NCBI GenBank assembly: GCA_041671365.1 | Contig: JBAZBP010000001.1 | Coordinates: forward strand, 116,459-180,458 | Direction of reading: 5' to 3' | Length of the DNA stretch: 64,000 nt | Source of the DNA: Patescibacteria group bacterium | GTDB taxonomy: Bacteria > Patescibacteriota > Patescibacteriia > Patescibacteriales > UBA12465 | Shown here: positions 2,655-60,731 of the stretch, one piece after another | How positions within the stretch are numbered: the first letter of the stretch is position 1 | Layout: each line of letters begins with the position of its first letter | Made by a program: the position numbers and the translations under genes | Notes under the pieces: generated by a model | Told to the model about the DNA's origin: nothing | The model's input: only the letters and a program-made list of their open reading frames with translations | The model's database searches: none

Positions 2655-4716
2655 TATGACTGAAACTATCAGCAAACTAATTAAAAGGTCCGGTGAAATT
2701 AGTGATTTTGATCAGGATAAGATTGTTACGGCGATTTATAAGGCGGCCCTAGCAACGGGGGTAGATGACCATCACCAGGCTAAAAAATTAGCTAGTCAAG
2801 TAGTTATTCAGCTTAATAAGAAATTTTATAAAAGTAGTATACCGGCCGTAGAAGAGGTCCAGGATATAGTGGAAGAGGTATTGATTGAGAATAAGTTAAT
2901 TAAGATCGCTAAGGCTTATATTTTATATCGCGAGCAACATCGTCAATTACGTGATATTAACACTAAAATAATTGATGATAAATTGATGGAAGATTATTTG
3001 GGTAGAGCGGATTGGCGTTTGAAAGAAAATAGTAATATGAGTTTTTCTGTCCAGGGTTTAAATAATTATATTGCTTCGGCTATTTCCGCTCGTTATTGGT
3101 TAGATAAATTATATCCAGAAAATATTCGCGCCGCCCATATTAATGCTGATTTTCATATTCATGATTTAGGTTTACTCGCCCCTTACTGTTGTGGTTGGGA
3201 TTTAAAAGATTTATTGATTCGCGGTTTTCGGGGAGTGAATGAAAAAGTACAAAGTAATCCGCCTAAGCATTTTCGCAGCGCCCTCGGTCAGATAATTAAT
3301 TTTTTCTATACCATGCAGGGCGAAGCGGCCGGCGCTCAAGCTTTTGCTAATTTTGATACTTATCTGGCGCCATTTATCCGCTATGATAATTTAACCTATA
3401 AAGAAATTAAACAGGGTCTGCAAGAATTCATGTTTAATATTAATGTCCCGACTCGAGTTGGTTTTCAAACCCCGTTTACTAATGTTACTTTAGACGTTAC
3501 TCCCTCTCCTATGATTGGCGAAGAAAATGTTATTATCGGCGGAGAAATCAAATCGGAGAAATATAAAGATTTTCAAGCGGAAATGGATTTATTTAATACC
3601 GCTTTTGCCGAAGTGATGATTGCGGGTGATTCGACCGGGCGGGTTTTTGGCTTTCCTATACCGACTTATTGTATTGATAAAGATTTTGACTGGGACAGAG
3701 AATGCTTAAAGCCGGTTTGGGAAATGACCGCTAAATATGGCATCCCTTATTTTTCTAATTTTGTTAATTCCGACATGAAGCGCGATGATGCCCGATCAAT
3801 GTGTTGCCGCTTAAGGCTGGATAACCGAGAATTACGTAAACGTGGCGGCGGTTTGTTTGGCGCGAACCCACTGACCGGTTCTATTGGCGTCGTGACAGTT
3901 AACTTGCCTCGTATCGGCTATTTGTCCAAGAGCAAAGAAGAATTTAAAAAACGTTTGTTAGTTTTAATGGAATTAGCTAAAGAGAGTTTAGAAATTAAAC
4001 GTAAAATTTTGGAAAAATTTACCGATGACCACCTTTATCCTTATTCTATGTTCTATTTAGATAATATTAAGAAACGTTTTGGTTCTTATTGGCAAAATCA
4101 TTTTTTGACTATTGGCATCAACGGTATGAATGAAGCCGCTTTAAATTTAATGGGTAAAGACTTGTCTACTCCCGAAGGTCGCGCCTTTGCGGCCGAAATT
4201 TTAGATTTCATGCGCGAAAAACTTATGGATTTTCAAAATGAGACTAATAATCTGTATAATTTAGAGGCGACTCCGGCCGAAGGCACCACCTATCGTTTCG
4301 CTAAAAAAGATCAGCAGCTTTATCCGGGTATTATTTGCGCTAATACGGAGGCGGTAAAAACTCAAGGAGCTCCTCCTTATTATACTAATTCTTCACATTT
4401 GCATGTAAATTTTAGTGATGATATTTTCTCCGCTCTTGATTTGCAGGATGATTTACAAATTAAATATACCGGGGGAACGGTTTTGCACGGTTTCTTGGGA
4501 GAAAGACTGCCTAATGGTGATACCGCTAAGAAATTAGTGAAAAAAATTGTTGAAAATTATCGTTTACCATATTTTACGATTACCCCAACTTTCTCGATTT
4601 GTCCTAAGCATGGATATTTATCCGGCGAACATAAGTTTTGTCCGAAATGTGACGAGGAAATTGGTTATAAAGAAAATTTAGCAGAGCTTGAAACCGATAA
4701 AAATGTTAATAAATAA
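2641..4716 (+). CDS. nrdD: Anaerobic ribonucleoside-triphosphate reductase NrdD, large part: ATP-cone, catalytic barrel and Zn-ribbon, ending before the glycyl-radical segment
   Basis: N-terminal ATP-cone (LIKRSGEISDFDQDKIVTAIYKAA). NrdD core motifs are present. The C-terminus carries the Zn site …FSICPKHGYLSGEHKFCPKCDEE… and then stops. Followed by nrdG. Confidence 0.9.
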   Translation: MKKSNMTETISKLIKRSGEISDFDQDKIVTAIYKAALATGVDDHHQAKKLASQVVIQLNKKFYKSSIPAVEEVQDIVEEVLIENKLIKIAKAYILYREQHRQLRDINTKIIDDKLMEDYLGRADWRLKENSNMSFSVQGLNNYIASAISARYWLDKLYPENIRAAHINADFHIHDLGLLAPYCCGWDLKDLLIRGFRGVNEKVQSNPPKHFRSALGQIINFFYTMQGEAAGAQAFANFDTYLAPFIRYDNLTYKEIKQGLQEFMFNINVPTRVGFQTPFTNVTLDVTPSPMIGEENVIIGGEIKSEKYKDFQAEMDLFNTAFAEVMIAGDSTGRVFGFPIPTYCIDKDFDWDRECLKPVWEMTAKYGIPYFSNFVNSDMKRDDARSMCCRLRLDNRELRKRGGGLFGANPLTGSIGVVTVNLPRIGYLSKSKEEFKKRLLVLMELAKESLEIKRKILEKFTDDHLYPYSMFYLDNIKKRFGSYWQNHFLTIGINGMNEAALNLMGKDLSTPEGRAFAAEILDFMREKLMDFQNETNNLYNLEATPAEGTTYRFAKKDQQLYPGIICANTEAVKTQGAPPYYTNSSHLHVNFSDDIFSALDLQDDLQIKYTGGTVLHGFLGERLPNGDTAKKLVKKIVENYRLPYFTITPTFSICPKHGYLSGEHKFCPKCDEEIGYKENLAELETDKNVNK

Positions 4717-5664: not shown

Positions 5665-7431
5665 ATGAAAGATATAGCGGTTTTTGCTCAGACAACTTAT
5701 CGTAACGAATTTAAAAAATTCGGCATTAAAGTCGACGATCGCCGTCGGCATATGTATTTGATTGGAAAAACCGGTATGGGTAAGTCGACAATTTTAGAAA
5801 ACATGATTGTCGATGACATTCGCGCCGGCAATGGCGTGGCCGTAGTTGATCCGCATGGCGATTTAGCGGAAAAAATTATTCGCTATATCCCCAGTAGCCG
5901 GATTAATGAGGTAATTTATTTTAATCCTTCGGATATTAATTACCCGATTGCTTTTAACGTGGTTGAACAAGTGGAACCGCATTTGCGCCATTTAGTCGCT
6001 TCCGGTTTAATTGGAGTTTTTCAAAAATTATGGGCTGATTCTTGGGGGCCACGTTTGGAATATATTTTACGTAATACTATTTTGGCAATTTTAGATTTTC
6101 CCGGCTCAACTCTTTTAGGCGTGGTGCGTATGCTATCCGATAAAAATTATCGCAAAAGAGTGGTCGCTAATATTAAAGATCCGGTGGTTAAAGCTTTTTG
6201 GGAGAAAGAGTTTTCCGGTTATGCCGATAAATTCGCTTCTGAGGCGGTTTCGCCGATTCAAAATAAAGTCGGGCAATTTCTTTCCAGCTCTTTAATGAGA
6301 AATGTCATCGGTCAGGTAAAATCTTCAATTGATATTCGTGATATTATGGATAATGGTAAAATTTTAATTATGAATTTATCCAAAGGACGTATCGGCGAAG
6401 ACAACTCCGCTCTCTTAGGAGCTATGATGATTACTAAGATCCAGTTGGCAGCGATGAGTCGGGTTGATGTTCCGGAAAAAAATCGTCGGGATTTTTATTT
6501 ATATATCGATGAATTCCAAAATTTTTCAACCGATAGTTTTGCCAATATTTTATCGGAAGCGCGAAAATATCGGTTGAATCTAATTTTAGCGCATCAGTAT
6601 ATTGAACAGCTCAGTGAAAAAGTTAGACCGGCGGTTTTTGGTAACGTTGGAACAATGATTGTTTTTCGAGTAGGAGCGATTGACGCCGAGGAATTAGTTA
6701 AAGAATTTACGCCAACTTTTACAGAAGAAGATTTGGTAAATTTACCAAAATATGAAATGTATTTAAAATTGATGATTGACGGAATTTCATCTTCGCCCTT
6801 TTCCGCTGCCGGTCTTCCGCCCCTGCGAGAAGACGAAGAAACCGGTAATGAACAAAAAGTAATTGATTATTCTCGTGAAAAGTATGCTTCGGATCGGGCA
6901 ACGGTAGAAGAAAAAATTATGAGTTGGCATGAAAATTATGGAGAAGACGAAATTAGGACTTCGGCTAAAAAAATTGTTTTACCGGCCAATCGAATTGATG
7001 ATTCGGCTATCGAAGCCAAAACTGTAGCCGCAGTTGCGTCAGTTCCGGTATCGCCGCCAATTTCATCATCTTTTTCGGCCGCTAATTCTAAACTTTCGGC
7101 AAAACCCGTATCTCCAAAAACTTTTTTAACCGCCGATAGTTCAACTTTTAGTCAAAAATCAGTAGTTAAAACCGGTTATTCGGCCATATGTGCAACTTGT
7201 GGGCAGAAAACGATGACTATTTTTAAACCGGACGGCATTCGACCGGTTTATTGCCGAGATTGTTTAAGCCGGAAAAAAGAAGAGAAACGCTTGGATCTGG
7301 AAGCCCGTCATTTAGCCAAAGAACAAGAAAAACAAAGCTTAACAACGACAACTACCACAACCACTACTACCGAAACAATGAAACCGGCGGCAGTGAATCC
7401 GGTTTTATCCCTGAATGATTTAAAAATATGA
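5665..7431 (+). CDS. TraD/VirD4/TraG-superfamily (type IV coupling-protein-like) P-loop ATPase with C-terminal zinc ribbon and poly-Thr linker
   Basis: Walker A HMYLIGKTGMGKST and Walker B-like FYLYIDEFQNF. C-terminal CATCGQKTMTIFKPDGIRPVYCRDC is a CxxC-x19-CxxC ribbon. A TTTTTTTTTTET tract follows. Confidence 0.5.
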   Translation: MKDIAVFAQTTYRNEFKKFGIKVDDRRRHMYLIGKTGMGKSTILENMIVDDIRAGNGVAVVDPHGDLAEKIIRYIPSSRINEVIYFNPSDINYPIAFNVVEQVEPHLRHLVASGLIGVFQKLWADSWGPRLEYILRNTILAILDFPGSTLLGVVRMLSDKNYRKRVVANIKDPVVKAFWEKEFSGYADKFASEAVSPIQNKVGQFLSSSLMRNVIGQVKSSIDIRDIMDNGKILIMNLSKGRIGEDNSALLGAMMITKIQLAAMSRVDVPEKNRRDFYLYIDEFQNFSTDSFANILSEARKYRLNLILAHQYIEQLSEKVRPAVFGNVGTMIVFRVGAIDAEELVKEFTPTFTEEDLVNLPKYEMYLKLMIDGISSSPFSAAGLPPLREDEETGNEQKVIDYSREKYASDRATVEEKIMSWHENYGEDEIRTSAKKIVLPANRIDDSAIEAKTVAAVASVPVSPPISSSFSAANSKLSAKPVSPKTFLTADSSTFSQKSVVKTGYSAICATCGQKTMTIFKPDGIRPVYCRDCLSRKKEEKRLDLEARHLAKEQEKQSLTTTTTTTTTTETMKPAAVNPVLSLNDLKI

Positions 7432-7550
7432 GTCCGCGTGATTTTCGCGGCCGGGAGATAAAAAATCGGTCAGCATCTTTAGAAAAAAATACCGAAGAGA
7501 AGACATTAAAAGAGGGAGAAGATTTAATTATCAGTAACAATAATTTTTAA
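7428..7550 (+). CDS. Small 40-aa ORF filling the ATPase–exonuclease gap
   Basis: ATGA start/stop overlap with the upstream ATPase, and its stop is 3 nt before the downstream start. Sequence MSPRDFRGREIKNRSASLEKNTEEKTLKEGEDLIISNNNF. No recognisable domain. Confidence 0.3.
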   Translation: MSPRDFRGREIKNRSASLEKNTEEKTLKEGEDLIISNNNF

Positions 7551-7553
7551 ATT

Positions 7554-8132
7554 ATGTATTTGTTTTTTGATACGGAAACAACCGGTTTACCTCGTAATTA
7601 TCAAGCACCGCTTGATGATTTTTTGAATTGGCCGCGGATTGTGCAGTTAGCCTGGAGCCTTTACGATGAAGATGGCGGACTCTGGGAGAGTTATAATTAT
7701 ATTATTAAACCCGTTGGCTTTATCATTCCCGAAGAGTCCACTAAAATTCATCATATTTCTCAAGAAAGAGCCAGGCAAGAGGGTATAGAATTACAGCTGG
7801 CGCTGAAATATTTTTTGCGAGATGTCGATGGCGCCGCCACCCTGGTTGCTCATAATATTGATTTTGACGAAAAAATTATTGGCTCGGAGCTTTTACGAGA
7901 AAAATTAATAAATCCTCTGACGGCTGCTCATAAAATTTGTACCATGAAATCCAGCGCCGCTTATTGTCAAATAGCTAGTAGTCGTGGCGGTTATAAGTGG
8001 CCGAATCTAATGGAACTTTATACCTGTCTGTTTAAGATTGGATTTGCGGATGCTCACGACGCTATGATTGACGTTAAGGCTTGCGCTGAATGTTTTTTTG
8101 AGTTAAAAAGAAGAGGTGTTATTCGACTATGA
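7554..8132 (+). CDS. DnaQ-like DEDDh 3'-5' exonuclease
   Basis: Exo I FFDTETTGLP, Exo II LVAHNIDFDEKII, Exo III HDAMIDVKACAECF. Confidence 0.75.
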   Translation: MYLFFDTETTGLPRNYQAPLDDFLNWPRIVQLAWSLYDEDGGLWESYNYIIKPVGFIIPEESTKIHHISQERARQEGIELQLALKYFLRDVDGAATLVAHNIDFDEKIIGSELLREKLINPLTAAHKICTMKSSAAYCQIASSRGGYKWPNLMELYTCLFKIGFADAHDAMIDVKACAECFFELKRRGVIRL

Positions 8133-9724
8133 ATCAAACTGTTAATTATTTAAAGATTGGTAAGGCCGCCGATTTAAGCGGTCGTGATTACACAATTTAC
8201 CGGATATTAGAAATATTACCGGGATTTTTATCGATTTTTTCTCTTTTAATTTTAGTAGTTTTATCTTATTTACAACCGGTTTGGGTGGCTTACTTTATTA
8301 TTGCCTTCGATGTTTATTGGTTATTATTGGTCATTTATATGGCCATTTTTTTAATTTCTTCTTACTACCAACTCCAAACCGGATTAAAAACTGATTGGCG
8401 CATGGAATGCGAAAAATTAAAAAATATCCAATCTAACCCGCAATCAGCAGCGGCCACTTCTTTGGCTAGCCAGGGCGTTCAGTGGGAGGATTTATGGCAA
8501 TTAATTGTTTTGCCGAATTATAATGAAAGTTTAGAAATAATTCGGACTTCACTAATTTCTTTAGTAGAGGATGGTTATCCTGCCGATCGTTTAATTATTG
8601 CTTTGGCCATGGAAGAGCGGGCGGGCGTCGACGCTAAAAATCGCGCGACCTTGATTCAAGAAGAATTTGGTCATAAATTTGGACATTTTATCATTACTTG
8701 GCATCCGGACGGATTACCCGATGAATTAAAAGGTAAGGGTGCGAATCAAGCTTGGTCGGCGCAAATAGTAAAACGAGAAATAATTGATCGAGAAAATTTA
8801 AATTATGATCGGATTTTAGTTAGTGTTTTCGATATTGATACCATTGTTCAGCCGGGATATTTTTTTGCTCTGACTTATAAGTTCTTAACAGTGAACGATC
8901 CTTATCATACCAGCTATCAACCTTTGCCCGTTTATCATAATAATATTTGGAACGCTCCATTTTTTTCTCGAGTGGCCGCTTCGTCGAATACTTTTTGGCA
9001 GATGATTATGCAAATTAGACAAGAAAGCCTAGTTACTTATTCTTCCCATTCCATGACCTGGCGCGCCTTGGTAGAAATTGGTTTTTGGTCAACCACTAAT
9101 GTTTCCGAGGATTCTCGTATTTTTTGGCACTGTCTTATGTATTATAATGGACATTATCGAGTCGAGCCGATTCATTATAAAGTATCAATGGATGTTACCC
9201 ATGATGAAAATTATTTAAAAACGGCAAAAAGTCTATATAAGCAACAACGGCGCTGGGCCTGGGGAGTAGAAAATATTCCCTATTTATTATTCAACTCCGG
9301 TCAGCGCTGGAAAAATAAAGACTTTGATCGCAGTAAAGTCATCGGACATATTTTTATTCAACTTTACGGTTTCTATGCTTGGGCGACTAACGCTTTGATT
9401 ATTGCGATCATCGGTTGGTTACCAATGCTTCTCGGCGGAGATCGTTTTAATTCCACGGTTTTATCGGGAAATTTACCATCAGTGACGCAAAATTTGATGA
9501 GCGTGGCCATGATTGGCTTAGTTTTATCCGGTGTTATTTCCGCTCTTTTATTACCGCAGAGACCGAGAAAATATACAGTCTGGAAAAATATTGTGATGGC
9601 CTTAGAATGGGTAGTTGTGCCGATTACTATCATTATTTTTGGCGCTATTCCTTGCCTAGAGGCGCAAATTCGTTTAATGGCAGGCAAATACATGGGTTTT
9701 TGGGTAACGCCTAAATCTCGATAA
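8129..9724 (+). CDS. Processive family-2 glycosyltransferase, integral membrane (cellulose/chitin/PNAG-synthase-like)
   Basis: PNYNESLEII, FDIDT (DxD) and QQRRWAWG (QxxRW) motifs. N- and C-terminal TM clusters. ATGA overlap with the upstream exonuclease. Confidence 0.7.
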   Translation: MNQTVNYLKIGKAADLSGRDYTIYRILEILPGFLSIFSLLILVVLSYLQPVWVAYFIIAFDVYWLLLVIYMAIFLISSYYQLQTGLKTDWRMECEKLKNIQSNPQSAAATSLASQGVQWEDLWQLIVLPNYNESLEIIRTSLISLVEDGYPADRLIIALAMEERAGVDAKNRATLIQEEFGHKFGHFIITWHPDGLPDELKGKGANQAWSAQIVKREIIDRENLNYDRILVSVFDIDTIVQPGYFFALTYKFLTVNDPYHTSYQPLPVYHNNIWNAPFFSRVAASSNTFWQMIMQIRQESLVTYSSHSMTWRALVEIGFWSTTNVSEDSRIFWHCLMYYNGHYRVEPIHYKVSMDVTHDENYLKTAKSLYKQQRRWAWGVENIPYLLFNSGQRWKNKDFDRSKVIGHIFIQLYGFYAWATNALIIAIIGWLPMLLGGDRFNSTVLSGNLPSVTQNLMSVAMIGLVLSGVISALLLPQRPRKYTVWKNIVMALEWVVVPITIIIFGAIPCLEAQIRLMAGKYMGFWVTPKSR

Positions 9725-9794
9725 AAATTTGGCCAATAAATCGAAATTTTAGAATAATTTCGCAGCTATTTTTTTTATGCTATAATAATTAACG

Positions 9795-10226
9795 ATGATA
9801 AAAAATAAAATTCGCCCTCGAAATTTTAATGGAGGGCCAGATTCTATTTCCCATAGTTTTTTTTATCGTCTGGTTTCTAACCAGCGTTTTTTAGCGATTA
9901 TCGGCTTGGTTTTTTTGGTGGTTATTATTTTTCCGTTGGCTCAAACTTATAGTCAACGCCGCTTGGCCGAAAAAGAGGTTCAGGATGTTAAAAATAAAAT
10001 AAGTAATTACGAGATTCAAAATAAGCAATTGGAAGATTTAATAACTTATTTAAAATCCGATCAGTCATTGGAAGCGCAAGCCCGACTTAACCTTAATATG
10101 AAGAAACCCGGCGAAGCGGTAATTGTTGTGGAAGATAAAAAGGTTAGTACCATGAATATTGCCGCCAGCTCCACCGATGAGTCCAGAAGTAATTTAGTTA
10201 AATGGTGGCGTTATTTTTTTAATTAG
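9795..10226 (+). CDS. Septum formation initiator (FtsB/DivIC-like) bitopic protein
   Basis: Single TM (FLAIIGLVFLVVIIF), then a coiled coil (…QDVKNKISNYEIQNKQLEDLITYLKSD…) and …ARLNLNMKKPGEAVIVV. Confidence 0.5.
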   Translation: MIKNKIRPRNFNGGPDSISHSFFYRLVSNQRFLAIIGLVFLVVIIFPLAQTYSQRRLAEKEVQDVKNKISNYEIQNKQLEDLITYLKSDQSLEAQARLNLNMKKPGEAVIVVEDKKVSTMNIAASSTDESRSNLVKWWRYFFN

Positions 10227-10239
10227 AGGATTCTTTTTG

Positions 10240-10312
10240 AGCCGAGAAGGGGATTCGGACCCCTGACCTACGCGTTACGAGTGCGTTGCTCTACCAGCTG
10301 AGCTATCTCGGC
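10240..10312 (-). tRNA. tRNA-Thr (anticodon CGT)
   Basis: Reverse complement GCCGAGATAGCTCAGCTGGTAGAGCAACGCACTCGTAACGCGTAGGTCAGGGGTCCGAATCCCCTTCTCGGCT folds as a cloverleaf with a 7-bp acceptor stem and GGTCCGAATCC T-arm. Anticodon loop CTCGTAA. No encoded CCA. Confidence 0.75.
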
Positions 10313-10331
10313 AGTTGAGTAATGAACTGTC

Positions 10332-10406
10332 TGGAGCGGGTAAGCGGAATCGGACCGCCTTCTTCAGCTTGGGAAGCTGACGTAATAACCATTATACGAT
10401 ACCCGC
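10332..10406 (-). tRNA. tRNA-Gly (anticodon CCC)
   Basis: Reverse complement GCGGGTATCGTATAATGGTTATTACGTCAGCTTCCCAAGCTGAAGAAGGCGGTCCGATTCCGCTTACCCGCTCCA. Perfect acceptor and anticodon stems, loop TTCCCAA, U73 discriminator, encoded CCA. Confidence 0.8.
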
Positions 10407-10464
10407 GAGACGAATGGTTGATATATTATAGAATTATTAAATTAGTTTAGTCAATTAATTATTT

Positions 10465-11961
10465 ATGTTTTCAAAATCTAATAAATATTTTTGGTTATTT
10501 GGTTTGGTTCTGTTTTTAATGCCACTAAGCGGGCGAACAGCCCTGGCGGCGAGTTTAAATATAACTTACGTGCCAGAGGCTTTCACGGCACCGGCTATTT
10601 TAAATATCGCTACTAGTTCAGAAAAAACAAGTTTGCCTTGGCAGTGGAAAGCCTTAACACCGGCTTATGATTATTCATTAACCACAGATGGTTTTTATGA
10701 TCCTAGCCGACCGATGAGGATTACAATCAATTATACCGGAACTAATAATTATTTAAAACAAATTTTTATTTTTGATTCCTCGGCTAATCTTTGGCGACCG
10801 CTCCCCACTACCGATTTTCCTAGTAAGAATCAGGCGACAGCTATGACGACTTCAGTGAGCGGTCGGCTGCTGATAGCTGCCAATTCAGATATGATGACCA
10901 TCGGTACCGCTAGTTGGTATAAATATAAAAATGGCTTGTTTGCCGCTTCCCCCGATTTTGCCAAGGGCTCTGTCTTAAAAGTTATTAATTTGGATAATAA
11001 TAAATCGGTTAATGTGATCGTTAATGATTATGGCCCGGAGAGAGCAATCTTTCCTAATCGTGTTGTTGATTTAGATTATGTAGCCTTTAAACAAATTGCT
11101 TCAACCGGCGCCGGATTAATTAAAGTTAGAATTGAACCTCTAAAAATTGTTGGATCTACTTTGAATAAACCTTTGGCACCGACATTAAGTACTCCAGCCT
11201 TGACCGCTTCATCGGCTGTAATTATGTTGGAGAAAACCGGAGAGATTCTTTGGGGAAAAAACCAAAATAAGATTTCCCCCTTGGCCAGTCTTAGCAAATT
11301 AGTGGCGATGCGAGTTTTTTTGGATACGCGTCCCAGTTTAAATAAAGTAGTTGCCTATAAAGTCCAGGACGAGAATTATAACTCTAAATATTGTTCACCT
11401 TCGGAATCGGCGCGCATTCGCCTGCGAGACGGCGAAACCGTTACGATTCAAGATTTAATTTATAGTTCTTTGGTTGGTTCAGCTAACAACGCCGTAGAAA
11501 GCTTAGTGCGGGTTAGTGGCTTAAGTCGTCCGAATTTTATTAAAAAAATGAATGAATTAGTTAAAACTTGGGGGGCAACTAATACTGTTTTTGTAGAACC
11601 GACGGGACTATCTCCCAACAACGTGAGTTCCCCGCAAGACTATGCTATAATAACTAAAGAAGTTTTTACTAATCCGTTATTGCAGAAGATCAGTACAACT
11701 TTAAATTATACTTTTAAGACAATCAACACCAAGATCAGACATAGTATTAAAAATACCGATAAATTATTGCAGACTAACACCTATAAAATTATTGGTTCAA
11801 AGACTGGTTATTTAGATGAAGCCAAATACTGTTTAATGACGCGTGTCCAAACGCCGCAGGGAAATTTGATTTCTGTTAATTTTGGTTCAACCAGTCAGGC
11901 GAATAATTTTTTGGATAATGAGCAATTAATTCGTTACGGATTATCTCTTTTTAAAAAATAA
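10465..11961 (+). CDS. Secreted fusion protein: RlpA-like DPBB domain plus D-alanyl-D-alanine carboxypeptidase (PBP5/S11-like)
   Basis: Signal peptide. RlpA-like TASWYKYKNGLFAASPDFAKGSVLKVINLDNNKSVNVIVNDYGP. SxxK (LASLSKL), SxN (GSANN) and KTG (SKTGYL) motifs. Confidence 0.7.
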   Translation: MFSKSNKYFWLFGLVLFLMPLSGRTALAASLNITYVPEAFTAPAILNIATSSEKTSLPWQWKALTPAYDYSLTTDGFYDPSRPMRITINYTGTNNYLKQIFIFDSSANLWRPLPTTDFPSKNQATAMTTSVSGRLLIAANSDMMTIGTASWYKYKNGLFAASPDFAKGSVLKVINLDNNKSVNVIVNDYGPERAIFPNRVVDLDYVAFKQIASTGAGLIKVRIEPLKIVGSTLNKPLAPTLSTPALTASSAVIMLEKTGEILWGKNQNKISPLASLSKLVAMRVFLDTRPSLNKVVAYKVQDENYNSKYCSPSESARIRLRDGETVTIQDLIYSSLVGSANNAVESLVRVSGLSRPNFIKKMNELVKTWGATNTVFVEPTGLSPNNVSSPQDYAIITKEVFTNPLLQKISTTLNYTFKTINTKIRHSIKNTDKLLQTNTYKIIGSKTGYLDEAKYCLMTRVQTPQGNLISVNFGSTSQANNFLDNEQLIRYGLSLFKK

Positions 11962-52907: not shown

Positions 52908-54686
52908 ATGTTTAGGGAAAAATATATTAATTTAATTATAGTCAGTCTATTGGCGTTAGTTTTTTTTATAGCTACTGCCAGCCTTAATTTTTATTCGCAA
53001 ACGCAAGACTATACTAAATGGTCCTCGCCGGACGAAACCGCTAATTATTTTTTTACAAAACAGTTAAGTCAGACCGGCCAGCTGTCTTATTTTGATGCGG
53101 CCAATATTATTGGCGATAATATGGTCATTCCCCGTAGCGTCCGGAGTGATAACGGCTGGGTGAAGCCCGTTAGCTTTTTAGGTATTATCTTAATTTATGG
53201 TAGCCTGGCCTCTATTGTTGGGACGGCCGTAATTCCGTTTTTGACTCCCTGGTTTGCAGCTTGGGGCATAATATTTTTTTATTTAATTGTCCGACGCTTG
53301 TTTTCGGAACGTGTCGGTCTCTGGTCGGCTTGGTTATTGGCAATTTTCCCGGTTTATATTTATTATACCGTCCGCAGCATGTTTCATAACGTGTTATTCA
53401 TTGTTTTGCTTTTGATTAGTGTTTATTTATTTGGTTTAGCTATTGGTCGTCAAGAGACTAAAGTTAAAACTAATTTTTTAACTTGGACTCGGCCGATTCA
53501 TCAGTGGTTAGAGTTTTTAGCTGTTTTTGGCAGCGGTATTTTTTGCGGTTTGGCCGTTATTACTCGTACTTCCGAATTGTTGTGGTTAGTTCCGGTTGTG
53601 CTTTTAGTATGGATATTTTATTTTCGTCGTCTCGGTTTTGTTAAACCATTTTTATTTATTTCCGGCTTTGTCTTGGCTTTGATTCCCGTCGCTTATTATA
53701 ATCAGATTATTTATAATTCTTTTTGGCAGGGCGGTTACAATGAGATGAACCGTTCTCTTAAAGACATTGCCGCTTCCGGTAGTGAAATTTGGAAATTTAC
53801 TTGGACCGGACAATTTAATTACTACCATCATTATTTTGGACAAATTTTTAATAGAATTTTTTATTTTGGTTTTGATTATAATCAATCGTTAGTAATGCTT
53901 GGACATTACGTTTATGAAATGTTCCCGTTTCTTCTAATTGGCGGCATTCTCGGATTATTAATTATTATTGGGCAAAATTTCCGTCGTTTTCAAAAGAAAT
54001 ATTTGGTCTATATTTTAGGCTGGCTAATCCTTAGCGTTATTTTGGTTTTCTATTATGGCAGCTGGAAATTCAATGATAATCCGGATTTAACGCAATTTAC
54101 TATCGGCAATTCTTATACGCGTTATTGGTTACCTTTATATTTAGGATTAATGCCTTTGGTTTCTTTAGCGCTAGTTCGTTTAAGCCGAGCCTTATTATTC
54201 ATTAATTCAAAAACTTCAGCCGGAATTCGAAGGATAATAGCTAGCGGCTTGCAAGTTTTAGTTATTTTAACTTTGAGTATTTGGTCTCTGATGTTTGTAA
54301 TTTACGGTTCGACCGAAGGTTTGGCGTATTTATATTATAATAACCAAGCCGAAAAGGTTAATGCCGAAAAAGTTTGGTCTTTAACGGAGCCGACGTCCGT
54401 TATTATTACTCGTTATTACGATAAATTCTTTTGGCCGGAGCGGCGAGTAATTATGGGCACACTGCCTAATGATGAAATTTTAACGGCCGCGGCTAAACTT
54501 GTTAAAGTTTATCCTGTTTATTACTATAATTTTTATTTAGATTCGGCCGCGGTAACCTATTTAAATGAACGAAAATTTTTGCCCTATGGTTTACAAATGA
54601 ATTTAGTTAAAAAATTGAATGCTAAATTTGGTTTGTATAAATTAACGGCTAAACAGATTGATTATGAAAATACCGTCAAAAATTAA
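52908..54686 (+). CDS. GT-C family (ArnT/PMT GT39/GT83-like) polyprenyl-phosphate-sugar-dependent glycosyltransferase
   Basis: The first extracytoplasmic loop WSSPDETANYFFTKQLSQTGQLSY resembles the ArnT/PMT DE motif region. About 13 TMs. Confidence 0.5.
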   Translation: MFREKYINLIIVSLLALVFFIATASLNFYSQTQDYTKWSSPDETANYFFTKQLSQTGQLSYFDAANIIGDNMVIPRSVRSDNGWVKPVSFLGIILIYGSLASIVGTAVIPFLTPWFAAWGIIFFYLIVRRLFSERVGLWSAWLLAIFPVYIYYTVRSMFHNVLFIVLLLISVYLFGLAIGRQETKVKTNFLTWTRPIHQWLEFLAVFGSGIFCGLAVITRTSELLWLVPVVLLVWIFYFRRLGFVKPFLFISGFVLALIPVAYYNQIIYNSFWQGGYNEMNRSLKDIAASGSEIWKFTWTGQFNYYHHYFGQIFNRIFYFGFDYNQSLVMLGHYVYEMFPFLLIGGILGLLIIIGQNFRRFQKKYLVYILGWLILSVILVFYYGSWKFNDNPDLTQFTIGNSYTRYWLPLYLGLMPLVSLALVRLSRALLFINSKTSAGIRRIIASGLQVLVILTLSIWSLMFVIYGSTEGLAYLYYNNQAEKVNAEKVWSLTEPTSVIITRYYDKFFWPERRVIMGTLPNDEILTAAAKLVKVYPVYYYNFYLDSAAVTYLNERKFLPYGLQMNLVKKLNAKFGLYKLTAKQIDYENTVKN

Positions 54687-56001
54687 TAAAACTTATTATA
54701 TTATGACTATCGGTTGCCAGATGAACTCAGCCGACAGTGAGCGCTTGGCTGCTTTTTTAGATAATAGCGGATATCGGGCCGTTTCTGATTTTAAAATTGC
54801 CGGCACAGTGGTTATTAATACTTGCGGCATTCGACAGGCTGCCGAAGATCGGGCTTATGGTTTAGTTAACCAAATTAATAAATATAATCCGACAGCTAAA
54901 GTTATTATTGCCGGTTGTCTAAGTAAGCGACCAGACGTCAAAAAACGTTTGGCGGGCCGGGCTAACTTTTTTTTACCAATTAATGAAATGTTGCAATTAC
55001 CGGATTTATTGCAAGGTCAGGAGTATGAGCCATATTTTAGTTTAGATGAAGTTCGTTTAAAGGCGGGTGAAAAATATTTAGATATTTTACCCGTGCATCA
55101 AAGTAAATTTACCGCCTATGTTCCAGTAGGCAATGGCTGCAATAATTTTTGTTCTTATTGCGTGGTTCCTTATGCGCGCGGACGAGAAGTTTATCGTTCG
55201 TCGCTGGAAGTGATTAAGGAGGTTCGTGCTTTAGTCAAAAAGGGCTACAAGGAGATTATTTTAATTGCGCAAAATGTTAATAGTTATTCTGATGGAGATT
55301 ATAATTTTCCTCGCCTGTTGGCAGAATTAATTAAAATTCCCGGAAAATTTTGGTTACGTTTTTCTTCCAGCCACCCGAAAGATTTAAGCGATGAATTAAT
55401 AACGGTTATGGCTTCGTCTTCTAAGGTTTGTTCGCATTTGCATTTAGCGGTCCAATCCGGCGACGACGCTATCCTTCGGGCAATGAATCGTCAGTATACC
55501 GTCAGTCATTATAAAAATTTAATTAAAAAAATGCGCGCGGCTAAACCGGGAATAGCGATTACGACCGACGTGATTGTCGGTTTTCCCGGAGAGACTAAAA
55601 CTCAATTTAATCACACCGTTAAATTATTTAATGATTTAAAATTTGATTTAGCTTATATTTCCCAGTATAGTCCACGGCCGGGTACAGCTTCCGCTAAAAT
55701 GATTGATAATGTCAGTCCGGCTGAGAAGAAACGGCGAGCCTATGAATTAAATGAAATTTTAAAGCAAATAGCCTTGAAAAATCATCAGAAATATTTGGGT
55801 CAGATTGTAGAAGTATTGATTGAAGGTAAAAATAAGAAGGAAAAATATTATGGCAAGCTAAGTAGTTATCAAACGGTATTGATTAATGTGCCGGGAGATT
55901 TTAAAATAAATAAAAAAAACGACCCAATTGGTCATTTTGTAAATGTGAAAATTAATAAAGTTTTAGCTTTTGGGCTAGAGGGTGATTGGATAAAAAAATA
56001 G
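54658..56001 (+). CDS. miaB: tRNA (i6A37) methylthiotransferase MiaB (radical SAM MTTase)
   Basis: KTYYIMTIGCQMNSADSE UPF0004 domain, radical-SAM CNNFCSYCVVP, C-terminal TRAM domain. Upstream of miaA. Confidence 0.8.
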   Translation: MIMKIPSKINKTYYIMTIGCQMNSADSERLAAFLDNSGYRAVSDFKIAGTVVINTCGIRQAAEDRAYGLVNQINKYNPTAKVIIAGCLSKRPDVKKRLAGRANFFLPINEMLQLPDLLQGQEYEPYFSLDEVRLKAGEKYLDILPVHQSKFTAYVPVGNGCNNFCSYCVVPYARGREVYRSSLEVIKEVRALVKKGYKEIILIAQNVNSYSDGDYNFPRLLAELIKIPGKFWLRFSSSHPKDLSDELITVMASSSKVCSHLHLAVQSGDDAILRAMNRQYTVSHYKNLIKKMRAAKPGIAITTDVIVGFPGETKTQFNHTVKLFNDLKFDLAYISQYSPRPGTASAKMIDNVSPAEKKRRAYELNEILKQIALKNHQKYLGQIVEVLIEGKNKKEKYYGKLSSYQTVLINVPGDFKINKKNDPIGHFVNVKINKVLAFGLEGDWIKK

Positions 56002-56065: not shown

Positions 56066-57031
56066 ATGGCAACAAAAGTTATCCACCATAATAAATTTAA
56101 TAAGCCCTTGGATTCTAAACCTCAGGTTTTAGTAATTTTAGGTACGACGGCGAGCGGTAAAACTAGTCTGGGGGTTAAGTTGGCCGTTAAGTTTAAGGGA
56201 GAGATAATTAGCGCCGACAGTCGCCAAGTTTATAAAGGGATGGATGTCGGGACAGGCAAGGACTTGACGGAATATCGGATTGGAAAAAAGAAAATACCGT
56301 ATCACTTGATTGATGTCGCCGATCCTAAAAAAGGATTTGATTTGGCTCGTTATCAGAGATTAGCTTTTCGGGCTATCAAAGATGTGCTTAAGCATAATAA
56401 TTTACCGATTGTTGTCGGTGGGAGCGGGCTTTATCTGCAGGCTTTAGTGGATAATTATTCTTTGGATCAAGGGAAAACAAAGTTACCCCAACGAACTAAA
56501 TGGGAAAAATGGCCGGTCAAGCGTTTATTTCAGGAACTGGTCAGATTAAAGCCGGATTTTGCCGGACGTCTTAATAATAGCGACAAGAATAATTCGCGCC
56601 GTCTAGTTCGCTATCTGGAAATTGCCGAAGCGGGTGATTTAGATAAAATTAGGAAAAGAGAGTCGCCATATAATTTTATTTTATTAGGCCTGACTTGGTC
56701 CGATGCGGTTTTACGAGAACGGATTAATTTTCGGATTTTAGAGCGCCTGGAAAAAGAGGGGATGTTAGCCGAGGTCAAAGAATTAAATAAACAAGGTTTG
56801 AGTTGGGAGAAACTTAAATCTTTTGGATTAGAATATAAATTTATCAGTCAGCATCTTTTAGGTGAATTGACTTATTCGGAAATGGTTGAGAAATTGAGTA
56901 TAGCGTCTTATCGTTTTGCTAAACGTCAGAAAACCTGGTTCAAGCGTTGGGAAAATCAGGGGGCAAAGATTAAATGGATTAAAAACATTAAAGCGGCCGA
57001 AAAAGAGATTAGAAAGTGGATGAGAGTATAA
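56066..57031 (+). CDS. miaA: tRNA dimethylallyltransferase MiaA
   Basis: P-loop ILGTTASGKTSLGVKLA and DSRQVYKGMDVGTGK. Confidence 0.9.
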   Translation: MATKVIHHNKFNKPLDSKPQVLVILGTTASGKTSLGVKLAVKFKGEIISADSRQVYKGMDVGTGKDLTEYRIGKKKIPYHLIDVADPKKGFDLARYQRLAFRAIKDVLKHNNLPIVVGGSGLYLQALVDNYSLDQGKTKLPQRTKWEKWPVKRLFQELVRLKPDFAGRLNNSDKNNSRRLVRYLEIAEAGDLDKIRKRESPYNFILLGLTWSDAVLRERINFRILERLEKEGMLAEVKELNKQGLSWEKLKSFGLEYKFISQHLLGELTYSEMVEKLSIASYRFAKRQKTWFKRWENQGAKIKWIKNIKAAEKEIRKWMRV

Positions 57032-57101
57032 TTTTTAGGAAAAAATTGATTAAATTATAGCTAATTTTAAATAAATATTGTTTAGTTAAAAAATCATCTT
57101 A

Positions 57102-57935
57102 TTGTATCATAGATATCAGCCAGGAGGATATAAAGATTTTAAGATTTCTGACCCTAAACCACGTCATATCCATAAAGCCAATGTCCGTGACCGTTTACTC
57201 CATCACGCTATCTACCGTCAACTTTATCCCTTTTTTGACCGCATTTTTATTTTTGATAGTTATTCTTGCCGGTTAGATAAAGGCACTCATAAAGCCCTTG
57301 GCCAATTTCGTAGTTATTTTCTAAAAGTCAGCCGCAATAACACTAGAAATTGTTGGGTCTTAAAAGGCGATATCAGAAAGTTTTTTGCTAGTATTGATCA
57401 TAGTATTTTAATGGACATTTTAAAGGAGTATATTCCCGATGAAAAAATTGTCTGGTTGCTTCAAGAAGTTATTGGCAGCTTTAAAATTGGGACTGAGAAT
57501 AAGGGCTTACCCTTAGGCAATTTAACTTCTCAACTTTTTGCCAATGTTTATTTAAATAAACTAGATCAGTTTATTAAGCACCAGATTAAAGCCAGATATT
57601 ATATCCGTTATGCCGATGATTTTGTTATTTTTTCGGAAGATAGGGAATGGCCGGAGAATATAATTCATAGAATATCAGAATTTCTAAAATTTGATCTTAA
57701 ATTAGAGCTTCATCCGGATAAGTTATTTTTAAAAACAATCTTTTCGGGCGTTGATTTTTTGGGTTGGGTACATTTTCCTGATCATCGGGTTTTACGGAGC
57801 GCAACCAAAAAAAGAATGTTTAGAAAACTAAAGATTAATAATTACAAGAAACAATCGCTTAATTCTTATTTAGGGATGTTGAGCCATGGAAATGCCAAGA
57901 AATTGCGATTATTAGTTAAAAGTAATTTTAGTTAA
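57102..57935 (+). CDS. Reverse transcriptase, diversity-generating-retroelement (DGR) type
   Basis: RT motifs 1-2 (ISDPKPRHIHKANVRDRLLHHAIYRQL…SYSCRLDKGTHKAL), motif 4 GLPLGNLTSQLFANVYLN carrying the DGR-specific LGxxxSQ, and motif 5 YADDFVIF. Near-colinear with Bordetella phage Brt (IGSLTSQLFANVY…RYMDDIVVL). TTG start. Confidence 0.75.
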   Translation: MYHRYQPGGYKDFKISDPKPRHIHKANVRDRLLHHAIYRQLYPFFDRIFIFDSYSCRLDKGTHKALGQFRSYFLKVSRNNTRNCWVLKGDIRKFFASIDHSILMDILKEYIPDEKIVWLLQEVIGSFKIGTENKGLPLGNLTSQLFANVYLNKLDQFIKHQIKARYYIRYADDFVIFSEDREWPENIIHRISEFLKFDLKLELHPDKLFLKTIFSGVDFLGWVHFPDHRVLRSATKKRMFRKLKINNYKKQSLNSYLGMLSHGNAKKLRLLVKSNFS

Positions 57936-57952
57936 GATAATAACATTAATAT

Positions 57953-59458
57953 TTATTTTAATAATTTTTCCAGTAATTCTCTAACAATTTTAGGATTAGC
58001 CTTGCCTTTGGTTTCGGCCATTACTTGGCCGACAAAAAATTGCAGGACCGTAGTTTTTCCCTGACGATATTGTTCTAGTTGGGCGGGATTATTAGTGATT
58101 ATTTTTTTTACCGCTTCTTCTAATTCATTCTCATTATTCATTTGCTGCAGCCCCAAAGCTTCCATAATATCGGTCGGATCGCCGCCCTCCCAATACATTT
58201 TTTCTAAAATACTCTGTCCGGTTGAAGAATTAATTTTATCTTGATAAATTAAACACATTAATTCCGCAAAATTTTCGGCCGTCATTTTTAAGTCGGTAAT
58301 TTTTTTATTATCTGCGTTTAGATGTTTTAATAATTCGCTGGTAATCCAGTTGGCGGCGGTCTTGGCTAGGCTTTTTTCTTGACGAACCGCTTCGTCGCCG
58401 TTAGCTTCAATCCAAGCGTCGAGTTCGGATATAACCTCCTCTGTCCAATCGGCTAAACTTCTATCGCTAACTAAAACTTCGGCTAATTCCGGGCTGTAGC
58501 CATATTCTTTCATAAAGCGTTGTTTTTTTAGACTAGGCATTTCCGGTAATTTAGCCTGGATGTCAGCCAATAAATCGTCATCAATTTTTAGAGGGGGAAT
58601 GTCCGGTTCGGGAAAATAGCGATAATCCGCTGAACTTTCTTTCAGGCGCTGACTGACGGTAGCCGCTTTATTTTCATCCCAGCCGCGAGTTTCGGCGAGT
58701 ATTGCTTCTCCCTTTTCGAGCAGTTTGGTTTGTCTTTCAATTTCAAAATTAATAGCCTTTTCCACGGCGCGGAAAGAATTTATATTTTTTACTTCGACTT
58801 TAGCGTTAAGCGGATGGTTCTTTTTGGGTTGAATTTGTCCATCTTTATAAATCCATTCGCCCGATGCCTGGACGCTAATATTAGCTTCACAGCGCATTTG
58901 GCCTTTTTCCATGTCTGCGTTACTAATATTTAGATAACGTAAAATTTGTTGGTAGGCCTGGCAGAATTTTTTAGCTTCATCGGCGTTTTTTATTATTGGT
59001 TCAGTTACTAATTCCATTAAGGGCGTACCGGCACGATTAAAGTCTAAAAGAGTATAATCTTGCTCTTTAAAATGCAGAGATTTACCGGTATCTTCCTCTA
59101 AGTGGATTCGAGTAATGAGGATTTTTTCGTTATTTATGGTTAGATAACCGTCGTAAGCCAGCGGTTGATCATATTGAGAAATTTGGTAGCCTTTGGGCAG
59201 ATCGGGATAAAAATAATTTTTTCGATCAAATTTAGAAGTGCGATTAATTTTACAATGCAAGGCTAGTCCGGTTAAAATTGTCCAATCAATGGCTTGCTTG
59301 TTGGGAACCGGTAAAGTTCCGGGGTGTCCCAAACAGATAGGGCAAACTGTAGTATTGGGCGCTTGACCGTCGGCGTCATTATCACAGGAGCAAAACATTT
59401 TGCTTTTAGTTTTTAGTTCGGCGTGGATTTCCAGGCCGATAATAGTGTCGTAAGTCAT
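57953..59458 (-). CDS. gatB: Asp-tRNA(Asn)/Glu-tRNA(Gln) amidotransferase subunit B
   Basis: MTYDTIIGLEIHAELKTKSKMFCSC… GatB N-terminus and C-terminal YqeY-like domain. The internal Met is taken as the start (the ORF track extends to 59482). Confidence 0.9.
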   Translation of the reverse strand: MTYDTIIGLEIHAELKTKSKMFCSCDNDADGQAPNTTVCPICLGHPGTLPVPNKQAIDWTILTGLALHCKINRTSKFDRKNYFYPDLPKGYQISQYDQPLAYDGYLTINNEKILITRIHLEEDTGKSLHFKEQDYTLLDFNRAGTPLMELVTEPIIKNADEAKKFCQAYQQILRYLNISNADMEKGQMRCEANISVQASGEWIYKDGQIQPKKNHPLNAKVEVKNINSFRAVEKAINFEIERQTKLLEKGEAILAETRGWDENKAATVSQRLKESSADYRYFPEPDIPPLKIDDDLLADIQAKLPEMPSLKKQRFMKEYGYSPELAEVLVSDRSLADWTEEVISELDAWIEANGDEAVRQEKSLAKTAANWITSELLKHLNADNKKITDLKMTAENFAELMCLIYQDKINSSTGQSILEKMYWEGGDPTDIMEALGLQQMNNENELEEAVKKIITNNPAQLEQYRQGKTTVLQFFVGQVMAETKGKANPKIVRELLEKLLK

Positions 59459-59459
59459 A

Positions 59460-60731
59460 TTAGAATTTACCGGAGCTGCCAAAACCGTTGTCTTGACGTT
59501 CGGTAGAATTATCTAATTTCTCTTCGCTAATTTCTAAATTTAAAACTTCTTGAATTAAAATTTGGGCAATTTTTTGACCGGGAACAATATTAAAAATTTC
59601 TTCGCTTAAATTTTTGACCACCACTTTAATTTCTCCGCGATAATTAGCGTCGATGACTCCGCCCATAATGGTTATGCCTTCTGAGGCTAATCCGCTTTTA
59701 TCCCAAATTAAACCGGCGCAGCCTTCGGGTATTATCATTTTTAAACCGGTAGCTACCAGAGCTTGATTATAGGGGGGCAAAGAATAATAATCGTTGGCAT
59801 ATAAATCATAGGCAGCGTCGTTAAGATGGGCTTTTTGGGGAAGTTTGGCTTGCGGGCTAATTTTTTCAACTATTAATTTTGTCGCTAGACTTTTTTTAAC
59901 CGGTTTATCGTCTTTAATTTCAGTTTTTATTGTTTCTCGATTTGAATCTTTAGTATATTCAAAAATAACTTCCCGATGATCCACGATTTGTCGGTTAGAA
60001 CCGATAATATTACTGATAGGCTGGAAATCCTGATGTTTAAGGGAATCATGGTTAATTATTTTTTTTACCGTTAGCCAGACCAATAAACTTATTTCGTCAC
60101 GATTTAGAATTTCTTTATTTTTTGTGCAGCTGATGAGCTGAAAATCCGGGAAGCTATTGGCAATTTCTAAATAAACTTGTTCGGCTTTTTGCAGATGCTC
60201 TAAATTATTTTCATGAATATCGGTAGTTTTTCCGACCCAATCTTCGCGCGACCTGGTTTTGGCCAGTTGTTGAGCAATACTGGATTCAACATGTAAAATA
60301 ATCGATAAATCCGGCCGGGGAATTTCTAGAATTTTATATTCTAAATCATCCAACCAATTAAAAAATATTCGCCGTTCTAGCGGATTAGTAATTTTACCGC
60401 CCTGGTGTCCCATATTGGCGCTGGTATAACGGTTAGCGAGCACAATTTTTCCTTCGGTTAACCACTGTTTTATTTTCCAACTGGCGTCGTAACGATCGAC
60501 GGCATAAAATATGGAAGCCTTGTAAGCGTCGACTTCATTGGCGTTGCCATATTTGCCTGATAAATATTCTTCTATCGGTCCGGCCGATTTAGTGTTGTAT
60601 TGGGGAAAGTCGGCCACCTCCACTGCGTAGCCCTCATTTTCCAGCTTCGCCTTTAACAGACTAAGCTGGGTGGTTTTTCCACTGCCGTCAGTGCCGTCGA
60701 TAACAATAAATTTTCCGGGAAAACCGTTCAT
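59460..60731 (-). CDS. Fusion protein: thymidylate kinase (Tmk) plus dUTPase (Dut)
   Basis: N-terminal FIVIDGTDGSGKTTQ with lid and DRY motifs (Tmk). C-terminal …AAYDLYA…GVIDANYRGEIKVVVKN…GQKIAQIL (dUTPase motifs I-V). Confidence 0.8.
   Translation of the reverse strand: MNGFPGKFIVIDGTDGSGKTTQLSLLKAKLENEGYAVEVADFPQYNTKSAGPIEEYLSGKYGNANEVDAYKASIFYAVDRYDASWKIKQWLTEGKIVLANRYTSANMGHQGGKITNPLERRIFFNWLDDLEYKILEIPRPDLSIILHVESSIAQQLAKTRSREDWVGKTTDIHENNLEHLQKAEQVYLEIANSFPDFQLISCTKNKEILNRDEISLLVWLTVKKIINHDSLKHQDFQPISNIIGSNRQIVDHREVIFEYTKDSNRETIKTEIKDDKPVKKSLATKLIVEKISPQAKLPQKAHLNDAAYDLYANDYYSLPPYNQALVATGLKMIIPEGCAGLIWDKSGLASEGITIMGGVIDANYRGEIKVVVKNLSEEIFNIVPGQKIAQILIQEVLNLEISEEKLDNSTERQDNGFGSSGKF

Follow-up and report, generated by a model that had tools for sequence, protein, structure and literature searches.

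The closest solved relative of the gene described here is the reverse transcriptase (RT) of Bordetella phage BPP-1, bRT (PDB 8ub7 series), an enzyme of a diversity-generating retroelement (DGR). In bRT, the palm residues I181 and Q187 touch the template base and the incoming dNTP, and the N-terminal extension (NTE) subdomain forms an extensive interface with two protomers of the accessory protein Avd (bioRxiv 10.1101/2023.10.23.563531). A conserved lysine of the NTE, Lys29, touches the nucleotide at which templating begins, at its 5′ phosphate, and Avd is needed for catalysis and cDNA synthesis by the enzyme (bioRxiv 10.1101/2023.10.23.563531).

By sequence, the nearest relatives of the gene (58-93% identical) reside in standard DGR cassettes on the chromosomes of CPR/Patescibacteria, and their clade is the 'CPR set' of Wu et al., 2018 (PMC5758913), or clade 2 of Roux et al., 2021 (PMC8144416). 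Cassettes of this family run in the order small target gene with a C-terminal variable repeat (VR), template repeat (TR), bAvd gene on the opposite strand, and RT gene. At four loci whose RTs are 83-88% identical to ours (L001, L004, L005 and L006), the target gene encodes 185-206 amino acids and its 3′ end is the VR, while the TR, 119-133 nt in length, follows the VR at a distance of ~470 nt; mismatches between the two repeats fall at TR adenines in 12 of 12 cases in L005 and in L006, 12 of 13 in L001 and 11 of 13 in L004. These four loci and a fifth, L010, carry a bAvd gene that scores above the Pfam cut-off. Here we describe a Patescibacteria locus that retains the body of such an RT without the ~53 first RT codons, bAvd, TR, VR or target gene that relatives with enough flanking sequence all possess. 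We analysed it within a 64 kb stretch of a metagenome-assembled contig, which we call the window.

A DGR-type reverse transcriptase gene between miaA and gatB

The features of the locus, in window coordinates, are as follows.

54658-56001, forward strand: miaB-like radical-SAM methylthiotransferase gene, upstream of miaA (ORF and synteny)
56066-57031, forward strand: miaA (tRNA isopentenyltransferase), intact (ORF, synteny, and Pfam IPPT on orthologs)
57032-57098, no strand: AT-rich junction spacer of 67 nt, 13% GC, from the miaA stop to the breakpoint
57099-57904, forward strand: stretch whose DNA is homologous to the full-length RT genes of relatives (blastn, with the sequences compared side by side at the breakpoint)
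57102-57935, forward strand: truncated DGR-type RT ORF of 277 codons (ORF listing, RVT_1, bRT alignment and homologs)
57513-57533, forward strand: LGNLTSQ motif, residues 138-144 (sequence and bRT alignment)
57609-57620, forward strand: YADD catalytic motif, residues 170-173, in which D172 and D173 correspond to bRT D215 and D216
57953-59482, reverse strand: gatB, convergent with miaA and the RT (ORF; 100% match to NCBI MFA6994946.1, the GatB of a Patescibacteria MAG)

The ORF is uninterrupted from a TTG at 57102 to a TAA ending at 57935 and matches the Pfam RVT_1 family (E 4e-24). Its fingers, palm and thumb are present, and most of its NTE is gone. The best match among solved structures is bRT (E 6.9e-38, 33% identity), with window residues 4-257 colinear with bRT 57-300. 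Residues F66, R74, I76, D138, Q187 and D215/D216 of bRT are all conserved, and I181 is replaced by leucine; L138 and Q144 of the window protein align to I181 and Q187. The two proteins share the motif [I/L]G[S/N]LTSQLFANVY, where the window's leucine stands for I181, and within it LGNLTSQ carries the motif 4 signature of the DGR clade, [I/L]GxxxSQ. Relatives in the protein database number in the thousands; the best 120 are 63-90% identical and measure 285-374 aa, and those with a named source stem from Patescibacteria/CPR MAGs. The top matches sit inside CPR DGR cassettes, and the catalytic motifs of the CPR enzymes are identical to those of the window RT. The ORF is a genuine DGR-type RT gene of this known CPR clade. 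An initial annotation, made from the letters of the DNA, had reached the same class from LGNLTSQ in motif 4 and near-colinearity with the Bordetella phage enzyme, and on each of these points we agree with it.

Models of other prokaryotic RT classes also recognise the protein. Group II intron RTs belong to the same superfamily, and their fingers and palm can be aligned with it (GsI-IIC RT, PDB 6ar1, E 4e-18); a group II RT/maturase model, TIGR04416, is the top NCBIfam match (135.8 bits, positions 47-287), and PADLOC gives generic RT models and many DRT/UG models, the latter at E 1e-16 to 1e-28. The TIGR04416 score is nevertheless far short of the family cut-off of 300 bits, as is every other NCBIfam match, including those to retron, Drt and AbiA models. 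The E value of bRT is 20 orders of magnitude better than that of any group II or retron structure, the group II structures lying at about 1e-17 to 1e-18. An Rfam scan around the ORF, which leaves just 17 nt downstream of its stop, found no intron, retron or other RNA and no msr/msd-like match; the ORF listing contains no fused or adjacent effector, and the protein has no X/maturase or endonuclease domain of the kind that accompanies group II intron RTs. We also considered whether the gene has a foreign base composition: its GC content of 33% is unremarkable against the window mean of 37.8% (sd 2.9).

The gene is cut within its N-terminal coding region

When aligned with its homologs (alignment A1), the window protein starts at column 69. 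The homologs are 310-367 aa long, compared with 277 codons in the window, and extend ~53 residues further at the N-terminus, with the consensus MKIxLxHKFEDIISLENLLAAWQEFLxGKRRRLDVQIFExxLMDNIFSLHYD. At the DNA level, identity over 57099-57904 is 93% to locus L009, 90% to L008 and 88% to L005. This homology sets in abruptly at 57099, at the codon for Leu53 of the full-length protein, and there is no similarity upstream. The TTG 'start' at 57102 encodes an internal residue of the full-length protein, Leu54, and is the first permissible codon past an in-frame TAA at 57087-57089, within the junction spacer. The RT N-terminus is encoded in all of 88 related loci, comprising the contigs of the closest relatives and 80 further loci from a scan that took one genome per GTDB species. 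The window gene is the last four-fifths of a DGR RT gene, cut at 57098/57099, and the full-length, NTE-bearing RT of a complete DGR is missing from this site. The deleted part corresponds to the 56-residue N-terminal segment of bRT; Lys29 of bRT aligns to a conserved Gly-Lys-Arg (GKR) loop of the CPR RT family, and this loop is among the residues lost.

Six database entries for RTs of this family are only ~285 aa long (P0013, P0015, P0020, P0032, P0074 and P0099) and start at an internal methionine, which raised the possibility of natural short isoforms. The DNA of two of these was checked, and in both P0015 and P0074 the whole N-terminus is present in frame in the upstream DNA, beside Avd. 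These two entries are therefore gene-calling artefacts that arise because the overlapping, divergent Avd gene misleads gene callers. bAvd lies antisense to target, TR and RT in this family (L005 1174-1491, reverse strand; L004 1213-1530, reverse strand; L010 ~9448-9780, reverse strand; likewise in L172 and L174), and its long ORF overlaps the RT start, so that an internal Met is called.

We also looked for residual cassette homology in the 67-nt spacer. Local alignments of 57032-57098 to RT 5′ ends and to the miaA-target spacer of L010 were no better than those of shuffled sequences; such homology is rejected, and the spacer thus gives no left endpoint for the deletion.

The partners of a DGR are absent from the window

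Among the 88 related loci, 66 have a TR/VR pair with at least 80% adenine bias 400-1000 nt upstream of the RT, and four more have a weaker pair; in 16 the RT lies within about 1 kb of a contig end, and the last two show Avd and runs of N upstream. Put differently, a VR/TR-type pair is found just upstream of the RT in 70 of the 72 loci with at least 1.2 kb of upstream sequence.

The window presents a different picture. We queried the 64 kb with three target proteins and three Avd proteins of the family, three TR regions and the N-terminus of the RT; tblastn and blastn returned only chance-level matches. There is no Avd homolog adjacent to the RT or elsewhere in the window, and no homolog of the 185-206 aa family targets with their C-terminal VR. 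Repeat searches of the same 64 kb detected neither a family of direct repeats nor a repeat pair with A or T bias, and in particular gave no TR/VR pair differing almost only at TR adenines.

These results bear out much of what the initial annotation had described, namely the absence of Avd, of a TR and of a VR-bearing target ORF, and intergenic spaces of 70 nt upstream and 17 nt downstream; the search for A-biased repeats that it had recommended, run on the 64 kb window, found no pair. It had also described the TTG start and a very short N-terminus correctly but left the truncation of ~53 residues uninterpreted. Its overall reading was accordingly right about a DGR-type enzyme without partners and missed the 5′ cut at 57098/57099 and the loss of the NTE. 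Its choice between an orphan RT and action on a remote TR/VR, with the gene taken as intact, overlooks the central point, which is that the gene is 5′-truncated; 88 of 88 relatives encode the N-terminus.

A complete cassette occupies the same site in another Patescibacteria genome

The RT lies 70 nt from the miaA stop (57032-57101, counted to the TTG), and its own stop is 17 nt from that of gatB (57936-57952). miaB-miaA, followed by convergent gatB and tmk/dut, is a conserved block: gatB lies downstream of miaA in about 60 of 80 metagenomic loci found through miaA, with an RT in none, and the miaA-gatB spacer in those loci is usually 50-130 nt long and contains a GC-rich hairpin followed by a T-run. 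The three closest relatives by gatB (L169, L170 and L171; 82-83% identical) are syntenic with the window over about 11 kb, and their miaA/gatB spacers of 49-78 nt hold a terminator only. Because these DGR-less closer relatives have a terminator spacer alone, the closeness of the RT to the miaB-miaA tRNA-modification genes is best read as incidental; a position that had seemed curious is not functionally meaningful when the miaA/gatB pair is itself conserved in about 60 relatives.

DGR-less spacers (L092, L094, L095, L101, L129, L131 and L169-L171) carry their GC-rich hairpin with T-runs on both sides, as in a bidirectional terminator. Across 57032-57952 of the window, there is no terminator hairpin on either side of the RT stump, and miaBA and gatB transcripts may therefore run into it, sense and antisense respectively. 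On the far side of gatB, a 423-aa ORF (59460-60731, reverse strand) overlaps the gatB start by 23 nt; its orthologs in L169-L171 match Pfam thymidylate kinase and dUTPase/dCTP-deaminase, and it belongs to a conserved block of nucleotide-metabolism genes that also includes dCMP deaminase, thyA, DHFR and an AAA kinase.

One further genome, the Patescibacteria MAG represented by L010 (JBAQCS010000043.1), has a complete cassette in the miaA/gatB spacer in the same orientation as the window RT. Its RT is 76% identical to ours, and at least nine genes are syntenic with the window. The gene order is PMT-like gene, miaB, miaA, target/VR, TR, Avd, RT, gatB, tmk-dut, with the following coordinates on that contig.

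7273-8199: miaA
8420-8977: target gene
8854-8972: VR
9313-9431: TR, with 17 of 17 mismatches at A
about 9448-9780, reverse strand: bAvd
9842-10834: RT, 330 aa
10851-12359, reverse strand: gatB

The RT and gatB stops are 16 nt apart in L010 and 17 nt apart in the window. Several DGR-less genomes (gatB 80-83% identical) are closer to the window than L010 is (gatB 69%), and occupation of the shared site therefore requires that cassettes inserted there independently or that they were cleanly lost several times. We considered, and rejected, the possibility that the cassette was transferred together with gatB from an L010-like donor: across eleven 50-column windows of the gatB alignment, the gene of our locus is nearer to DGR-less relatives in nine, the exceptions being the first and the last. 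We likewise rejected the idea that these cassettes aim at convergent terminators, as IIC introns do, as the downstream neighbour is co-directional at 53 loci and convergent at 21.

The remaining reading frame shows no decay

Comparison of the window RT with that of L009 gave a dN/dS of 0.068 at a dS of 0.32 (Nei-Gojobori). When substitutions were polarised with L009, L008 and L005, the window lineage showed 14 synonymous changes and, within 3 codons, 4 non-synonymous ones, and the full-length L009 lineage 17 synonymous and 3 non-synonymous. Neutral expectation is ~80% non-synonymous, which gives P = 2e-7 for the window. Two of the window's non-synonymous changes, I214 and F215 in the TIFSG stretch, give residues that also occur elsewhere in the family, for example in P0074. 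The ORF that is left is thus not decaying, which means that the truncation is recent or, with lower probability, that selection still acts on the stump. For a non-functional stump, we estimate that the time since the deletion would take up no more than about 12% of the branch that leads from the split with L009 (Poisson upper bound, 4 observed vs 57 expected non-synonymous changes).

Whether the stump could be translated is not something a Shine-Dalgarno test can address here, because only 5 of the 51 long ORFs in the window have such a motif upstream. Leaders are extremely AT-rich, which together with this count suggests that initiation in this Patescibacteria genome is mostly SD-independent. 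A terminator scan of 57032-57098 predicted no terminator-like site, so read-through transcription of the stump is plausible, and it may be transcribed in this way from miaBA.

Origin of the truncated gene

Together, the 5′ cut, the missing partners, the occupied site in L010 and the lack of decay in the reading frame indicate that the ORF is probably a recent deletion remnant of a CPR DGR, no longer able to diversify anything. In the most likely history, a cassette inserted into the miaA/gatB convergent spacer, and an illegitimate deletion then removed its 5′ ~1.8 kb, taking away the target gene with its VR, the TR, Avd and the greater part of the RT's NTE. We infer this history because L010 has the whole cassette at the same site and in the same orientation. 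With the NTE, the template RNA and the recipient VR all gone, the stump is very probably unable to carry out mutagenic retrohoming, and its truncation is most likely recent in evolutionary terms. Most likely, then, this is an ordinary degenerate DGR remnant, and a new kind of stand-alone enzyme is unlikely. The junction at 57098/57099 is known from a metagenome-assembled contig, and the search for partners covered the 64 kb window. Several considerations weigh against this explanation: the strong signature of purifying selection on the window branch would also fit a functional stump; L010 is a more remote relative than several genomes that have no DGR at the site; a second, complete DGR may lie elsewhere in the genome; and it is possible that only a fragment of the cassette was ever acquired at the site.

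The first of these considerations leads to the alternative that fares best, in which an NTE-less RT has been retained and is functional, translated from the TTG and co-transcribed with miaBA, and either acts in trans with a TR, Avd and VR located elsewhere in the genome or has been domesticated for another role. The 277-codon ORF is intact, with all catalytic and template-contacting core residues conserved, and its ratio of 14 synonymous to 4 non-synonymous changes is no different from that of the full-length L009 gene; there is no predicted terminator-like site between miaA and the ORF, the lack of a Shine-Dalgarno motif is no argument against translation when 5 of 51 window genes have one, and several CPR genomes hold more than one DGR (L014 with L020, L036 with L083 and L040 with L073 each come from a single assembly). 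Against this, the missing NTE supplies in bRT both the Avd interface and the template-contacting Lys29, and Avd is required for cDNA synthesis. A natural NTE-less form was seen in none of the 88 related loci and in neither of the two short database entries checked, and the 'start' codon is an internal leucine after an in-frame TAA. Further, no other genome turned out to carry the truncated allele: an identical protein is absent from the records, the closest gatB is 83% identical, the best miaA relative is 74% identical, and no closer relative with the same junction was found. We therefore regard a retained, functional enzyme as unlikely, and its more specific form, a stand-alone NTE-less DGR RT kept under purifying selection, expressed through miaB-miaA read-through and working with no Avd or TR nearby, whether in trans on a remote TR/VR pair that has no RT of its own or in a new role that needs no DGR template, as very unlikely.

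DGR loci combine near-identical VR/TR repeats with hypervariable sites, and both features trouble assemblers. As the window stems from a metagenome-assembled contig, the truncation could in principle be an artefact of assembly or binning, or a minority deletion variant in a population whose other members carry a complete DGR at miaA/gatB. The missing interval, however, runs from the miaA spacer to RT codon 53 and not from VR to TR, as collapse of the repeats would give. The 67-nt junction matches no cassette sequence, and the flanks on both sides are colinear with the conserved synteny. We judge this account to be highly improbable. Membership of another RT class, be it group II intron maturase, retron or Abi/DRT defence RT, is effectively refuted by the family cut-offs, the ranking of PDB structures and the lack of an associated RNA, and by the A-biased TR/VR pairs and Avd that relatives of the window RT possess.

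Read as a deletion remnant, the locus illustrates cleanly how a DGR decays in a small CPR genome, with a stump seen soon after the loss of template, accessory gene and target. For surveys of DGRs it carries a caution: an RT that looks like an 'orphan' needs to be examined for loss of its 5′ end before trans action or novelty is claimed for it. At least two lineages have had a DGR cassette in the miaA/gatB convergent spacer. The residual interest of the stump lies in its clean signal of purifying selection; only if it were both expressed and under selection would it speak to the question of whether the core of a DGR RT works in the absence of NTE and Avd.

Sequence elements around related cassettes

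An imperfect palindrome of ~52-56 nt (TTTGCCACAGCAGAAAG...CTTTCTGCTGTGGCAAA) is conserved ~70-85 nt upstream of the DGR target gene in related cassettes (L010 8283-8338; L005 2-53; L006 1569-1620; L001 8394-8447; L004 1-46). The cassettes that bear it occupy different genomic contexts, and it may be a cassette-borne regulatory or boundary element.

The RT of L008, on a Logan contig and 90% identical to that of the window, has an in-frame TAG at ~1403 in place of a conserved tryptophan (codon W119), and its lineage-specific changes comprise 14 non-synonymous and 16 synonymous substitutions. It could be a decaying copy, or the changes could reflect assembly errors.

The genomes of the closest RT relatives also contain dispersed intergenic repeats of 50-200 nt that are 71-86% identical to one another. 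Examples are found in L001 (8028-8102, 11057-11131 and 13566-13641, as well as 5913-6052/8124-8264), in L005 (2640-2838 vs 3646-3845) and in L006 (1-163 vs 4256-4408), where the pair brackets the whole DGR region. Some of these repeats terminate in a tRNA T-arm-like sequence, GGTTCGAATCC. Candidates for the identity of the repeats are MITE- or REP-like elements and att-like duplications.
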